Assembly: GCA_048886185.1 (NCBI GenBank)
Contig: JBHLKY010000027.1
Span: 16,976-48,975 of the forward strand
DNA length: 32,000 nucleotides
From: Candidatus Hermodarchaeota archaeon
GTDB lineage: Archaea; Asgardarchaeota; Heimdallarchaeia; Hodarchaeales; Hodarchaeaceae
Reading direction: 5' to 3'
Shown here: piece by piece, positions 18,208-26,968 of the stretch
Layout of the letters: each line of letters starts with the position of its first letter
How positions within the stretch are numbered: position 1 is the stretch's first letter
Translations under genes and position numbers: made by a program
The notes under the pieces: generated by a model
Databases searched by the model: none
Seen by the model: the letters and a program-made list of their open reading frames with translations, nothing else
Told to the model about the DNA's origin: nothing

Positions 18208-20955
18208 TTAATATTCTGATACTAGTCTTTCTTTACAAAGAGGACAGCTATTACCTTTCTCAACCTGATTGGGATGAATAAAATCAACTTGGCATTTAGT
18301 ACATTCTCTAGGATACTTCATTAATGACCCTGAACAATAAGGACATTTCCTTATTGATACAAAACATGATGAACAAATTGGGCGATAACAGTTTTCACAA
18401 TAATAAAATTGCATTGGATTTTCAGGTACATTCTGACAGATTTGGCAAGTAATTCTTAGTGATTGGGCTCTAAAGTGTTTATCATCTATTTGTGTTAAGA
18501 AAATCTTTTTTGAATGAAACCTGTGACGTAATACTTTGCGTACACTAATGTATACACTTTCAAATGGAATTCTCTTTCCTTTTAGCATCATCTTTTCTAT
18601 TTGGTCTAATCGACGTAAGAATGCATATTCCTTAATAGAATAAACCGAAATTTCAGCAGTTTGGTAAGTAATGCTACAGGAAGGACATAATAGATTCTCT
18701 CCTAATTCTTCAACTGAAATGATTGTTATGAGACATTGTGGACAGGTTAATGGTAATTCCTGTAAATCTTTATTACCACAAGAGGGGCAAGCTAACATTC
18801 TTGTTATCTCTAAACTTTTGTAACAATTTTGACAGAGATACTTAAAACATCGTTTACACTGATAAAAGATTAAATTAGAAGTAATTTCTTCATTTTTTAA
18901 CTGACATTTAGCTTGAAATTTCTCCGCAAGATAGAATCTGTTTTTAATTTGTGTTAAAATGAGCCCAGTATCTAGTGCAAAGTGTCTAGCGAATCTTATT
19001 CCATCAAAAATGTTACCTAAAGATCTTTCTAGACGATTAAATGGAATTGCATTCCCCCTTTTGATATCACGAGCAAGATCCCCAAGTTCTTGGTCAAACT
19101 TAAGACAATCTTCAGTAATGAAGAGGTCAGAGTCCTTAACGAATGTTCCTCGTTGGGGTTCTTTCATCAGTTCTTTTTTGAGGATTTCAGGATCAGTGTG
19201 GAGAATTTCAGCTAATTCACTAATTCGGACCACAGGACCTAGTTTACTGTCAACAATGATCGGATTGTTCACATCATTAGAGCTCAACAAGATAATGCTG
19301 TTCTTAATAATTTCTCTTTCACTTTTAATAAGATCTCTCAACCAACTTATTTTTACATCCAATTTTTCAGCAAAATTTGATAATTTTATTGCTTTTTCCT
19401 TTCTTATATTTTGAAATAGATCTTTCTCAAAAGAATTTAACCAATCTGGACTTATAAGGTAATTTATTCCTTTAAATGTTGGAATAATGGAAATTCCTTT
19501 GATTTTATCAGAATTTTGATCTAAATAATCTCTTAACCACGTCAAATTGATATCTAATTCCTCAGCAAGATTATTCAAACTGATTTTACCTTTATTTTGA
19601 ATTATTCCCAATAATAGATCATTAAAGGATTTTAACCACTCTGTAGTGGCAAAAGTCGGATACTTATGATAATCATGTATTTTCTGGATATTAGGGGCAA
19701 CTTTTCGTATTATTCTTTTGAAGTTAACATTATCAGGAACACCTAATTCGTTTTGTAACTCATTTATTCTAAATCGCCCTCTTGTCTGAAGTATTCTAGT
19801 AATCTCTTCCTGTAGATGTTTTGTTTCAATATCTGGTTCTCTAATCTCATATATCCGTAAAATTACACCAATTATTAGTAGAGAAAAGGTGGAAATCAAT
19901 AGAACTACAGTCATCACCATATCTAAAGAAATCACCGTCAGGCTGAGACAAACACCTAGTAAGATTGTTAGATAACGCCTATAACTCCAGCTGATCCATG
20001 TGGCTGCTAAAACTAGACAAAAAGTAATCCAATTTTGATAGAAAGCTGTAAGGATAGGAGTCAATGGATCAATAAAGTCTACTGAATACACATCGATGAA
20101 TAATGTTGAAGAAACAATTAGTCCTACAACACCAGCTTTTAAACTTCCAAATTGTTCAGTAGTATATCCTTTTTCTATTGTAACTGATATCTGATAAAGC
20201 AGGTCTGGGACACTTTTATTACTAAAATAGAGTCGTAAAATAACGAATAATCCAATAAAAAAGAATACAAGAACTATGTTTACTTGGATAATGACCAATA
20301 ATAATATTATAAAGAAAAAGAAAAAAGGAATTTCACGATCATTTTCAAAATCCTTATGAAGAAAATTGATTAACTTCCGACGATAGTTACTCAACACACG
20401 ATTGACTGTTAATGCCCATTTTGAAGTTGGACTCCCGTATTTCTTGTAAGAAACATCGGAATCGAAAAAAATGTCAAGGGAGAGAAAAATGATAAATAAA
20501 AAGAATAGAGCAAAGGGAGAAGCAAGGCCAATGTTAATATATTCTATATTCAGTAAAATACTAAGAATTCCAAGTAAAACTATTAAGGTCAACAAAAAAA
20601 TGTCAAGGAATTTTAAAAACCTTTCTTTGTAAGAAAGATGGATTAAAAATGAAGAAAATCCTTTAAGGAGAAAAATTTTTTCAATTAACGACCATAAACC
20701 CCTTAACACAAGGTATAGGGAGTAACAGAAGCATAAAATAACTACAGGGATAAAATTGGGGTTCTTAATTATATTTCGACAAAAGATGATGATATCAGAG
20801 TGTACTAAATTAGGGACTTCGATACCAATAATTTTTAAGCTAAGATTCCCAACAAGAAAGGCTAAGAGTAGTCCAAAAACGAGTGTAACACCTAGTTTCA
20901 ATACTTCAGCGCTTTCTTTTGAGTCATCACCTTTCCCGATTGGATCTAATGACAT
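18208..20955 (-). CDS. Large hypothetical polytopic membrane protein with tandem winged-helix-like repeats and two C4C4 RING-like + zinc-ribbon modules
   Basis: 915-aa ORF; roughly 10 hydrophobic segments in the N-terminal ~370 aa; four x-I/L-x-x-L-A-x-x-L repeats; 11 CxxC pairs in the C-terminal ~230 aa arranged as a duplication. Confidence 0.8.
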   Translation of the reverse strand: MSLDPIGKGDDSKESAEVLKLGVTLVFGLLLAFLVGNLSLKIIGIEVPNLVHSDIIIFCRNIIKNPNFIPVVILCFCYSLYLVLRGLWSLIEKIFLLKGFSSFLIHLSYKERFLKFLDIFLLTLIVLLGILSILLNIEYINIGLASPFALFFLFIIFLSLDIFFDSDVSYKKYGSPTSKWALTVNRVLSNYRRKLINFLHKDFENDREIPFFFFFIILLLVIIQVNIVLVFFFIGLFVILRLYFSNKSVPDLLYQISVTIEKGYTTEQFGSLKAGVVGLIVSSTLFIDVYSVDFIDPLTPILTAFYQNWITFCLVLAATWISWSYRRYLTILLGVCLSLTVISLDMVMTVVLLISTFSLLIIGVILRIYEIREPDIETKHLQEEITRILQTRGRFRINELQNELGVPDNVNFKRIIRKVAPNIQKIHDYHKYPTFATTEWLKSFNDLLLGIIQNKGKISLNNLAEELDINLTWLRDYLDQNSDKIKGISIIPTFKGINYLISPDWLNSFEKDLFQNIRKEKAIKLSNFAEKLDVKISWLRDLIKSEREIIKNSIILLSSNDVNNPIIVDSKLGPVVRISELAEILHTDPEILKKELMKEPQRGTFVKDSDLFITEDCLKFDQELGDLARDIKRGNAIPFNRLERSLGNIFDGIRFARHFALDTGLILTQIKNRFYLAEKFQAKCQLKNEEITSNLIFYQCKRCFKYLCQNCYKSLEITRMLACPSCGNKDLQELPLTCPQCLITIISVEELGENLLCPSCSITYQTAEISVYSIKEYAFLRRLDQIEKMMLKGKRIPFESVYISVRKVLRHRFHSKKIFLTQIDDKHFRAQSLRITCQICQNVPENPMQFYYCENCYRPICSSCFVSIRKCPYCSGSLMKYPRECTKCQVDFIHPNQVEKGNSCPLCKERLVSEY

Positions 20956-21161: not shown

Positions 21162-21668
21162 ATGAGTTTAAACGAATGTCCTAACTGTGGTGAATTGGCA
21201 AAACCCAACGAGTTTTTTTGCCAATCTTGTGGTACAGCATTAACTCGACCTGATAGACCTCGTACCCGAGAAATTCGTGGGTATATCCAGATCATTGGCA
21301 CTGTTGAGATAGTTTTCGGGATAATGGGGATCATAGGATCAATTTTTATTGGTTTTTTTGCAGTATTTATTCCTGCTTTGGTATCAGAGGGGGTACTGAA
21401 TGGGTCTGAAGAAGGTAGTATCCTAAGTTCTACCTCAACGGTTTCTTTTCTTGCAGTCCTAATTGGATTGATTGCATTGATGTTTCTCCTTTTCTCACTA
21501 GCGGCTATATTGAGTGGAATTAAATTAATGCAATACCGAAATTCGGGTCGAATTGGCACAATGATAATTGGGGCATTTTCCCTATTCATCATTCCAGTAG
21601 GAACGATATTTGGTGCGGCTGCATTATATATTTTGACAAAACCAGAAGTTGAGCCATTATTCGCATAA
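21162..21668 (+). CDS. Zinc-ribbon domain membrane protein
   Basis: CPNCG...FCQSCG N-terminus followed by about 4 hydrophobic helices; GGTGA RBS. Confidence 0.8.
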   Translation: MSLNECPNCGELAKPNEFFCQSCGTALTRPDRPRTREIRGYIQIIGTVEIVFGIMGIIGSIFIGFFAVFIPALVSEGVLNGSEEGSILSSTSTVSFLAVLIGLIALMFLLFSLAAILSGIKLMQYRNSGRIGTMIIGAFSLFIIPVGTIFGAAALYILTKPEVEPLFA

Positions 21669-25701: not shown

Positions 25702-26112
25702 TTGGATAATAATATACAACCAAAAAAGGCTAAGGGGAAGCCTATAGAAGACAAGATTAAATGGACGATTTGGTGGACTCCAGAAGAGTATAAAAAATTC
25801 GTTAATGTCCAAAAAGCGACTGGAAAACGCACTTTAGCAGCTCTTGTGAGAAATTTAGTAGATCTTGCAGACAAAAATCCTGACGCTCTAGAAATAACAG
25901 GTGATCAAGATTTTAATGAGATTATCAGTGAATTAAAAGAATCTTTTATTGAATCAAACAAAGAAAGAGTTAATTATCGTAAATCTGTTGAAAAAAACTT
26001 TATTCGACTCAATAGAAAGATTAATTTACTTTTAGAGAAGCAAAATATCGATAAAACTACCATTCAAGCACTGGATGGTGAAGATACAACAGGAGAGGCA
26101 ATATTTGAATAA
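25702..26112 (+). CDS. Small DNA-binding protein, ribbon-helix-helix/CopG-like N-terminus plus coiled coil; start placed at TTG 25702
   Basis: KWTIWWTPEEYKKFVNVQKATGKRTLAALVRNLV has the beta-strand + two-helix RHH pattern; GAGGT RBS before TTG 25702 (ORF track start is 25675). Confidence 0.5.
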   Translation: MDNNIQPKKAKGKPIEDKIKWTIWWTPEEYKKFVNVQKATGKRTLAALVRNLVDLADKNPDALEITGDQDFNEIISELKESFIESNKERVNYRKSVEKNFIRLNRKINLLLEKQNIDKTTIQALDGEDTTGEAIFE

Positions 26113-26968
26113 AAAACTACTTGATCAATTTCAAGAACATTGGATAGGTGATATAGTACCCAGTACAGTTCGAGAGTATTCTTATGTTCTAGCAAAAGTG
26201 CCAACAGGGAAGAAATTTGTAATAACTAAGAATACAGAGAAATATTTGAAAGCCAATAAGAAGAATCGTATGCTCATGAATGCTTGGAGAAAATTCATTC
26301 GTTTTCTCTATCAAATAGACAAAATAAGCCAGAAAGATTATCATATTCATTTAGCGAATTACTATCCTGAAAAAAGAAGAGGTTATGTAAATACAGAACA
26401 GGCAGGACAAGCTTTCCCTAAAAGTGAATGGACAGAGTTAATCAGAAAAGCCCCTAATCCTTGTGCTAAGATGGGGATTTGGTTAGGCTTACAATTTGGG
26501 ATGAGACTCTCGGAGATATTGAATTTACGTGTTCATGACATTGATTTTGCGAATCAGTGCATCAGAATATTTCATCACAAATCTGATTTAGAAAACGGAG
26601 TCCAAGAATGGAATCCTAAGCATAAACATGATCGTTTGATCGCTTTTAACGAAAAACAAGCTCAGACTCTTAAACGATGGATTGGTGAACGCCCTGACGA
26701 ACTTAGTCATCCATATCTGATTTGGACACCTAGAACCAAAACACAAGTGATTCATAGAACCTTTCAACGATGGTGTAAAGAATCCAATCCCAGATTAAAG
26801 TCTCATGATCTTCGTAGAAGCTTTGCAACAAATCTTTATTACGCTTCAGGGAAAGATCTAGTAGTTGTTCAGAAAGCTCTAGGTCATTCGAATATCTCTA
26901 CGACAAGTCAGTATTTACGTTTGGAGGAGGAGACTTATTTAGACAAGATGCGTAAAGCTCTCGCTTAA
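26105..26968 (+). CDS. Tyrosine recombinase/integrase (XerC/D-like); start may be TTG 26105 (ORF track start is 26075)
   Basis: Catalytic residues present: GMRLSE (R), PKHKH (K), HDLRR (HxxR), LGH, TSQY (Y); GGAGAGG RBS before TTG 26105. Confidence 0.92.
   Translation: MNKKLLDQFQEHWIGDIVPSTVREYSYVLAKVPTGKKFVITKNTEKYLKANKKNRMLMNAWRKFIRFLYQIDKISQKDYHIHLANYYPEKRRGYVNTEQAGQAFPKSEWTELIRKAPNPCAKMGIWLGLQFGMRLSEILNLRVHDIDFANQCIRIFHHKSDLENGVQEWNPKHKHDRLIAFNEKQAQTLKRWIGERPDELSHPYLIWTPRTKTQVIHRTFQRWCKESNPRLKSHDLRRSFATNLYYASGKDLVVVQKALGHSNISTTSQYLRLEEETYLDKMRKALA

Follow-up and report, generated by a model that had tools for sequence, protein, structure and literature searches.

A UFL1-like winged-helix array joined to duplicated RING-like zinc modules in a polytopic membrane protein of an Asgard archaeon: a candidate E3 ligase or E3 scaffold

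A stretch of 32,000 nucleotides from Candidatus Hermodarchaeota archaeon (assembly GCA_048886185.1, contig JBHLKY010000027.1, positions 16,976 to 48,975), which we call the window and in whose coordinates the gene and its features are given, encodes on its minus strand, at 18208..20955 including the stop codon, a protein of 915 amino acids (P0001) that was delimited from the list of open reading frames (ORFs) and their translations. The anatomy of this protein, i.e. a membrane domain followed by an array of winged helices resembling that of UFL1 and by two modules that each combine a cross-brace finger with a zinc ribbon, is well supported. Our preferred reading, which we put at a probability of about 0.5, is that P0001 may act as a membrane-anchored RING-type E3 ligase, or as an E3 scaffold, of a ubiquitin-type system. 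This reading is taken from the predicted fold, from weak profile matches and from the operon that encodes a paralogue of P0001.

If so, an orphan domain of about 8-10 transmembrane (TM) helices would hold P0001 in the cytoplasmic membrane and would display, on the cytoplasmic side, a UFL1-like array of five winged-helix repeats and then two units, in which a winged helix is followed by a cross-braced C4C4 finger for two zinc ions and by a ribbon for one. The fingers would recruit one of the four UBC-type E2s of the genome, charged with a ubiquitin-like protein (Ubl), and would engage it through the canonical RING surface, i.e. hydrophobic residues ahead of zinc ligand 2 and on the helix that follows ligand 6, and a proline behind ligand 7. 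The winged-helix array would hold a substrate close to the membrane in place, so that Ubl transfer would occur there. More speculatively, module 1, which is one zinc ligand short, might be the non-catalytic partner in an intramolecular RING pair, comparable to BMI1 in its relation to RING1B.

Domain architecture and conservation of P0001

The N-terminal part of the protein, residues 1-371 (19843..20955, minus strand), is a polytopic membrane domain for which hydropathy and the structural model give about 8-10 TM helices, close to the ten that a first-pass annotation of the sequence had counted. This domain is all-helical in the model at low confidence, i.e. with a predicted local distance difference test score (pLDDT) below 50, so that a fold search of this part is not meaningful, and a loop rich in lysine and arginine (residues 170-208) fits a topology with both ends on the inner side (N-in/C-in). 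Residues 1-371 have no Pfam or NCBIfam match, a look-up in the ESM Atlas returned no usable match, and the domain has neither a paralogue in the genome nor a homologue beyond five orthologues; it is an orphan domain.

The adjoining residues 373-683 (18907..19839, minus strand) comprise five winged-helix domains of the UFL1/DDRGK1 type, as found by Pfam, profile, Foldseek and VIA comparisons alike, with helices and strands following an H-S-H-H-S-S pattern in the model. The fifth of these domains already belongs to the first of the two C-terminal repeat units, and a sixth winged helix (residues 771-836; 18448..18645, minus strand) forms the linker of the second unit, where it aligns with residues 620-683 and shows in the model helices at 774-791 and 800-815 and strands at 818-822 and 827-832. 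The Pfam family E3_UFM1_ligase (PF09743), with a cut-off of 23.2 bits, is matched by the whole of P0001 at 23.9 bits and by residues 375-680 at 28.6 bits, and precomputed matches to the same family exist for the orthologues P0003 and P0005. The first-pass annotation had recognized no named family in this architecture, a statement that has to be corrected for the array. When a profile of the array (A3) was compared with the sequences of the PDB, it found only a DDRGK1-UFL1 chimera (8b9x_A, E 1.6e-4) and DDRGK1 (E 0.015), and a Foldseek search with the full-length model returned UFL1 in all of its best five rows (E 2.2e-6 to 6.5e-6), followed by the winged-helix array of SelB (E 4e-3). In a VIA comparison with UFL1 (8qfc_B), residues 373-678 map on UFL1 residues 45-365 with a Z of 10.1 over 271 aligned residues and a root-mean-square deviation (rmsd) of 13 A, which indicates that the array is flexible.

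What P0001 shares with UFL1 and DDRGK1 (PF09743, PF09756) is thus the tandem array of PCI-like winged helices. The differences lie in the anchor, which in eukaryotes is the single-TM partner DDRGK1 and which P0001 carries in cis as a polytopic domain, and in the C-terminal region of UFL1, which in P0001 is replaced by two RING-like zinc modules; UFL1 itself, to our knowledge, has no RING. A further difference concerns the modifier system, since the paralogue described below belongs to a system of ubiquitin type, with a UBE2D-like E2 and a Uba1-like E1, and neither Ufm1 (PF03671) nor UFC1 (PF08694) was matched in the 96%-complete genome; the UFC1 control, however, gave no signal anywhere, so that the UFC1 half of this negative result is weak.

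Homologues of UFL1 and DDRGK1 have already been reported from Asgard archaea (PMC10183829; bioRxiv 10.1101/2020.10.19.343400). The strong matches to PF09743 that we found belong to another Asgard family than that of the source organism (60 of 68 genomes). There, proteins of about 790 amino acids begin with Cys/His fingers whose spacing is AN1-like and continue with DDRGK, UFL1, PCI and Vps28 domains, a fusion that Liu et al. had described before (bioRxiv 10.1101/2020.10.19.343400). In our set it is represented by L041:436-2799 (-) and by L042-L050, in which a finger of the form CxxC-x8-CxxC-x4-CxxH-x8-HxC comes first, followed in order by DDRGK, E3_UFM1_ligase, PCI and a Vps28-like C-terminus. 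Zinc fingers on Asgard UFL1-like arrays thus recur, in different forms and at different ends.

Four full-length orthologues of P0001 share 59-80% identity with it and have the same architecture, for which the first-pass annotation had recommended a search. Their N-termini are conserved as MSLDP or MPLDP, and the two that come from named sources carry the labels of Promethearchaeota and Hodarchaeota metagenome-assembled genomes, which bears out the Asgard origin assumed at first pass. Every module cysteine of P0001 is invariant across these four orthologues, as is C684 together with a lysine or arginine in the place of the second cysteine. The 915-residue membrane form occurs in four of the 21 genomes of the source organism's own family, the source genome included.

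Ligand pattern and fold of the zinc modules

Each C-terminal repeat unit consists of a winged helix, a binuclear finger with eight ligand positions and a four-cysteine ribbon, and the period between the two units is 153 amino acids (837-684). When about 65 upstream residues are included in each case, the two halves align in BLASTP with E 2e-15 and 24% identity, which shows that the duplication is not due to chance. Both the tandem repeat, with its period and cysteine spacings, and the claim that the upstream linkers align as well, were read correctly at first pass.

By its cysteine spacing, module 1 has its binuclear finger at residues 684-726 (18778..18906, minus strand), with lysine as ligand 2 (CQLK), and its ribbon, CPQC-x15-CPSC, at residues 738-760 (18676..18744, minus strand). 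In module 2, where spacing and model agree, the C4C4 finger with all eight cysteines lies at residues 837-874 (18334..18447, minus strand) and the ribbon, CTKC-x15-CPLC, at residues 885-907 (18235..18303, minus strand). The first copy (18676-18906) reads C684 (CQLK), C700xxC703, C708xxC711, C723xxC726, C738xxC741, C757xxC760, and the second (18235-18447) C837xxC840-x12-C853xxC856-x4-C861xxC864-x6-C871xxC874-x10-C885xxC888-x15-C904xxC907, so that the spacings in copies 1 and 2 are x12, x4, x11 and x6, x11 and x10, and x15. Module 2 thereby has the eight-ligand, four-pair spacing that is compatible with a RING, and module 1 has the same with lysine at ligand 2, i.e. the loss of the second cysteine, seen already in the first annotation, is real and, with lysine or arginine in its place, common to all four orthologues.

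An exhaustive search for the module yielded 35 protein clusters, most of which share the module only, and 46 copies were aligned into a profile (A2); a word-based homologue search with this profile, which covered longer proteins, found nothing beyond seven known relatives. Pairs 2, 5 and 6 and ligand 7 are invariant across the 46 copies, ligand 2 is C, H, D or lost, ligand 6 is C, H or D and ligand 8 is C or H, and pair 1 reads CHLH, CDFH and CVSC in the distant homologues P0007, P0009 and P0008, respectively. Such swapping of C, H and D at pairs 1, 3 and 4 is the behaviour of metal ligands. The degenerate positions (ligands 2, 5 and 6) all fall within site 1 (ligands 1, 2, 5 and 6) of the would-be cross-brace, and in P0017 the ligands of pairs 1 and 3 are lost together. 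Moreover, several relatives carry a shortened copy that stops just after pair 4, which indicates that the unit is an eight-ligand domain plus a separable ribbon of four cysteines. RING domains contact E2 enzymes with hydrophobic residues ahead of ligand 2 and on the helix that follows ligand 6, and with a proline behind ligand 7; in the modules, I, L, V or M precedes ligand 2 in 42 of 46 copies, proline follows ligand 7 in 40, and L or I stands four residues after ligand 6 in 26.

An AlphaFold2 model of module 2 (residues 826-915) has a pLDDT of 84, with 84-91 in the finger. Its top Foldseek rows are RING1B/BMI1, RNF4, PCGF5 and TRIM32, none of them at E 1e-3 or better. The exhaustive structural search placed the Sulfolobus ribosomal protein aS34 first, followed by the ZZ domains of p62, Nbr1, KCMF1, BIG and HERC2 (Z 4.0-4.6, rmsd 2.2-2.8 A), which superpose over 47-50 residues on pairs 1-4 (model residues 4-58), and then, at Z of about 3, by RINGs, U-boxes, p44 (Z 3.0), Nse1 and PHD fingers. 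In the Atlas, the neighbours are DUF1272, makorin and other RING clusters as well as B-box clusters. These structural neighbours of the finger are all cross-braced folds, with no score that would be decisive for so small a domain, and model and ligand pattern together predict cross-braced binding of two zinc ions by pairs 1+3 and 2+4. The comparison with RING, C1_4 and B-box folds suggested at first pass thus has a divided outcome: only cross-braced neighbours were found, but no structural score is significant and no cut-off of a Pfam zinc family is passed. A series of consecutive ribbons, the outcome that would have spoken against a RING, is not what the model predicts, since the first four cysteine pairs superpose on cross-braced domains only.

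Among PDB sequences, the module profile finds the TFIIH subunit p44 best (E 3.9e-6, 30 bits), in line with the p44-like C4C4 character that had been proposed for the modules. The match consists of two stretches, in which the C4C4 finger of p44 (residues 342-388) aligns to pairs 1-4 and its preceding ribbon to pairs 4-5; the isolated p44 finger (1z60_A) is found at E 4.8e-3, and aS34, the RING of CesA, RNF4, RING1B, BRE1 and CNOT4 follow. With p44/Ssl1 the modules share the spacing CxxC-x11/12-CxxC-x4-CxxC-x(6-11)-CxxC, the motif [FY]xCxxCxxx[FVIL]CxxC and, in the second stretch, a resemblance to the p44 ribbon CPQC..LPVECKIC. They differ from it in the reversed order of ribbon and finger, and P0001 has neither a TFIIH context nor, in a Pfam scan, a vWA domain. 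The p44 alignment also suggested a different topology, in which pairs 4+5 would form a p44-like ribbon inside a finger closed by pair 6; this is less likely because relatives end after pair 4 and because the model matches span pairs 1-4. An RBR/IBR-type structure was likewise considered and set aside, HOIP and ARIH2 appearing only at a probability of 0.04-0.09. Structurally, the finger is matched best by the archaeal protein aS34 (PDB 9fhl, chain a; Z 5.4), with which the profile also gives a good match (E 1.8e-4); this hints at an older archaeal root of this type of finger.

Among the RING families of Pfam, P0001 scores highest with zf-C3HC4_3 (14.7 bits; cut-off 27), and the best E-value for zf-RING_2 among the 46 modules is 4.7e-4. 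At E up to 10, the matches listed for the modules of P0001 do not include C1_4 (PF07975), and neither do the top 25 families listed for the 46 modules at E up to 0.05. NCBIfam yielded nothing for P0001, for its paralogue P0042 or for the module. Since no Pfam zinc family comes over its cut-off, the module stands as a separate family among the binuclear cross-brace fingers.

Module paralogues and ubiquitin-type operons

The first-pass annotation had advised a check of the genome for ubiquitin, E1 and E2. In the 4.84 Mb genome (96% complete), four UBC-type E2 genes scoring over the Pfam cut-off, two to three genes for ubiquitin-like proteins and, in the Ubl operons, E1 genes are indeed present. 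About nine proteins of this genome carry the module. The one that bears most directly on our reading is P0042, encoded on contig C8, a soluble protein of 587 amino acids with a winged-helix array (a weak PF09743 match) plus one full and one short module. Its gene directly follows those for a 263-residue protein of no assigned family, a Ubl ending in QIKGG-stop and an E1 of 410 amino acids, with genes for a UBC-type E2 and a JAB protease on the opposite strand. The whole order (Arf-Arf-unk264-JAB-E2, then unk263-Ubl-E1-[winged helix plus zinc], then Band7) recurs in five further genomes of the genus, in which the winged-helix-plus-zinc protein is 50-68% identical. In full, this locus at about 7.6-17.7 kb of C8 (L022:646-10727) comprises on one strand two Arf-like GTPases, a 264-residue unknown, JAB and the UBE2D-like E2, and on the other strand the 263-residue unknown, the Ubl of 109 amino acids, the E1, the winged-helix-plus-zinc protein and then the Band7 gene.

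The E2 of this operon is closest to UBE2D and its Ubl to ubiquitin, and its E1 matches Uba1, UBA2 and UBA3 with E 1e-38 to 1e-29 against E 1e-16 for UBA5, affinities that make the C8 system one of ubiquitin type. A proto-UFMylation reading of the operon was considered and set aside in view of the Uba1-type E1, the UBE2D-like E2 and the ubiquitin-like Ubl together with the missing Ufm1/UFC1 match. Within the operon, P0042 occupies the position of an E3 and is the only evident candidate for one. A predicted complex of the C8 E2 with module 2 of P0001 and three zinc ions (score 0.02; mark 0.32) is evidence neither way.

In other paralogues, the module is combined with a seven-bladed WD40 propeller, with PCI-type winged helices, with TPRs, or with TM segments and double zinc ribbons, and in more distant relatives with WD40, with PQQ propellers or with strong UFL1-type arrays; P0011, for example, has a PF09743 match of 72.8 bits. 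Such a layout of receptor domain plus small finger is, by analogy, that of substrate-receptor RING E3s. In the 803-residue paralogue encoded at G000:C4:218540-220951 (-) (L025:6544-8952), a seven-bladed WD40 propeller is followed by one full module, which resembles the layout of WD40-RING and WD40-U-box E3s such as COP1 and Prp19. The neighbourhoods of the distant relatives P0011 and P0007 contain no ubiquitin-system genes. When the module profile was run against the ORFs of the genome, the next matches after the family members included two RING-H2-like proteins, one of them, at a weak 23 bits, a small RING-H2 protein within the ubiquitin cluster of contig C14.

A second Ubl operon, at about 292.4-298.2 kb of G000:C1 (L024:2471-8154, minus strand), encodes Ubls of 115 and 158 amino acids, an E1, an E2 and a JAB protein. 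It ends with a polytopic TM protein of 384 amino acids that has a terminal RING-H2-like finger, and with a multi-TM protein of 194 amino acids. The 384-residue protein is a candidate precedent for membrane-directed conjugation in the same organism.

At E 1e-8 or better, the module was found in all 20 other sampled genomes of the source organism's own family, in one of two of the sister family and in one of the 278 remaining sampled Asgard genomes, with 2-10 matches per genome. In the sampled genomes, it is thus confined almost entirely to a single Asgard family.

At the P0001 locus itself, a gene at 21162-21668 (+), divergent from that of P0001, encodes a protein of 168 amino acids that has a zinc ribbon at its N-terminus and about four TM helices, a divergent arrangement that recurs in another species (G208). 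A gene of the phage integrase family (26075-26968, +) lies at a distance of about 5 kb and adjoins TetR and metallo-beta-lactamase-fold genes. A look-up of sequencing runs listed no RNA run for the P0001 gene, whereas its DNA occurs in sediment metagenome runs of a single study, possibly the one from which the genome came.

Alternative readings and biological meaning

Several observations weigh against P0001 being a RING-type ligase or ligase scaffold. The operon evidence comes only by way of the paralogue P0042, which is about 31% identical to P0001 in the module, and the neighbours of the P0001 gene itself are metabolic (AFOR, M20 peptidase, NUDIX, acetyl-CoA synthetase-like) and include no ubiquitin-system gene, a neighbourhood that is conserved in another species of the genus. 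No module among the 46 copies passes the cut-off of any Pfam zinc family, RING families included; the structural matches are sub-significant (Foldseek E at least 8e-3, Z at most 5.4); the match to ZZ domains, a class of peptide binders, is no worse than that to RINGs; and the cross-brace comes from a predicted model and ligand patterns, not from a solved structure. Module 1 is without one zinc ligand, and the residue after ligand 8 is G, S, N or D and not the Arg/Lys 'linchpin' of many active RINGs. Finally, the p44 finger acts in TFIIH mainly as a protein-protein interaction module.

These points bring to the fore an alternative that we take seriously and yet hold unlikely, namely that P0001 is a non-catalytic membrane scaffold or adaptor, with the modules as protein-protein interaction fingers and an array that tethers a partner complex to the membrane, such as ribosomes or another ligase, and with no E2 engaged. 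It draws on p44 being the best sequence match, on the absence of both a linchpin arginine after ligand 8 and ubiquitin-system neighbours of the P0001 gene, and on UFL1, a scaffold-type E3 without a RING that, according to the titles of 8ohd and 8qfc, uses its winged-helix array to bind the 60S subunit. In addition, Picchianti et al. suggested a UFM1-independent function for the Asgard UFL1/DDRGK1 homologues (PMC10183829). It fits less well with P0042 as the only evident E3 candidate in an operon with Ubl, E1, E2 and JAB, with fusions of the module to typical substrate-receptor domains such as WD40 or TPR, and with the conserved hydrophobic and proline positions of the RING surface.

Rather improbable, in our estimate, is that the fingers are ZZ- or AN1-like readers of N-degrons, of Ubls or of modified substrates, which would make P0001 a membrane receptor for such proteins. 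After aS34, ZZ domains are the best-superposing solved domains, and the first six ligands have AN1-like spacing, with weak matches to zf-AN1 in 5 of the 46 modules and with an N-terminal finger of similar spacing in the main Asgard UFL1-like family. However, the Pfam models for ZZ and AN1 all stay far below their cut-offs, the only ZZ match for P0001 being ZZ_ADA2 at E 2.9, the profile search ranks p44 and RINGs first with no ZZ among the best 60 rows, and the modules do not have the last pair of two histidines that is typical of ZZ domains.

That P0001 is a membrane-tethered regulator whose winged helices and ribbons bind DNA or RNA (cf. TFE/TFIIE, SelB), released or controlled at the membrane, is very improbable. 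In its favour, archaeal transcription factors often combine winged helices with zinc ribbons, the structural neighbours include SelB arrays and winged helices of MarR type, and WH1, WH5 and WH6 of the winged helices are basic (isoelectric point, pI, 9.8-10.6). On the other side, WH2 and WH4 are acidic and the soluble region taken together is just mildly basic (pI 8.75), UFL1 is three orders of magnitude ahead of SelB in Foldseek, the sequence-level relatives of the array are only UFL1 and DDRGK1, and paralogue context and fusion partners point to the ubiquitin system.

Returning to the reading of P0001 as an E3 ligase or E3 scaffold, several known ligases offer comparisons. With the C4C4 RING of CNOT4 and with E3s that combine a RING and zinc fingers (TRAF6, RNF125, SIAH1), the modules share the all-cysteine cross-brace with x4 between ligands 4 and 5 and a further zinc finger directly after the RING; these proteins are among the weak sequence or structure matches, which are not significant. 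Hrd1, Doa10/MARCH6 and RNF145 resemble P0001, by analogy only, in combining a multi-TM domain with one or more cytoplasmic RING-type fingers, and differ from it in that P0001 has a winged-helix array between membrane and fingers. The small archaeal RING-H2 E3s of Caldiarchaeum and Asgard archaea belong to the same ubiquitin-type systems, but are short, soluble and of C3H2C3 type, whereas P0001 is a 915-residue membrane protein with C4C4 fingers and ribbons in duplicate. Such RING-H2 E3s of archaeal ubiquitin operons are treated in Hennell James 2017 and in bioRxiv 10.1101/2023.07.25.550441.

It is conceivable, though in our view doubtful, that the P0001 family represents an early form of UFL1/DDRGK1-type ligase, anchored in cis and still working with RING-type fingers, a UBE2D-like E2 and a Ubl. 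If this were true, the eukaryotic UFM1 ligase would have derived from RING-bearing scaffolds by loss of the fingers and a switch to UFC1, and the membrane form, in a relative of the ancestor of eukaryotes, would label targets close to the membrane, for instance ribosomes bound there or membrane proteins that have stalled.

The Asgard homologues of UFL1 and DDRGK1 reported so far come with neither a known partner system nor a known mechanism (PMC10183829). In our full-text literature search, no publication turned up that describes a fusion of UFL1-like arrays with p44-like fingers, an operon in which such a winged-helix-plus-zinc protein accompanies E1, E2 and Ubl, or a polytopic membrane version. 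What is new here is a lineage-specific family that physically joins UFL1-like arrays to RING-like fingers, with a zinc module not covered by any Pfam or NCBIfam model, with one member within a complete and conserved operon of Ubl, E1, E2 and JAB, and with another that has a polytopic membrane domain as its anchor. As one genome provides a defined E1, E2 and Ubl together with a candidate E3, the role of archaeal UFL1-like proteins becomes directly testable. UFL1-DDRGK1, the E3s of endoplasmic-reticulum-associated degradation and similar ubiquitin-type ligases anchored in membranes may have in P0001 a prokaryotic counterpart, which would as such bear on the origin of these ligases in eukaryotes.

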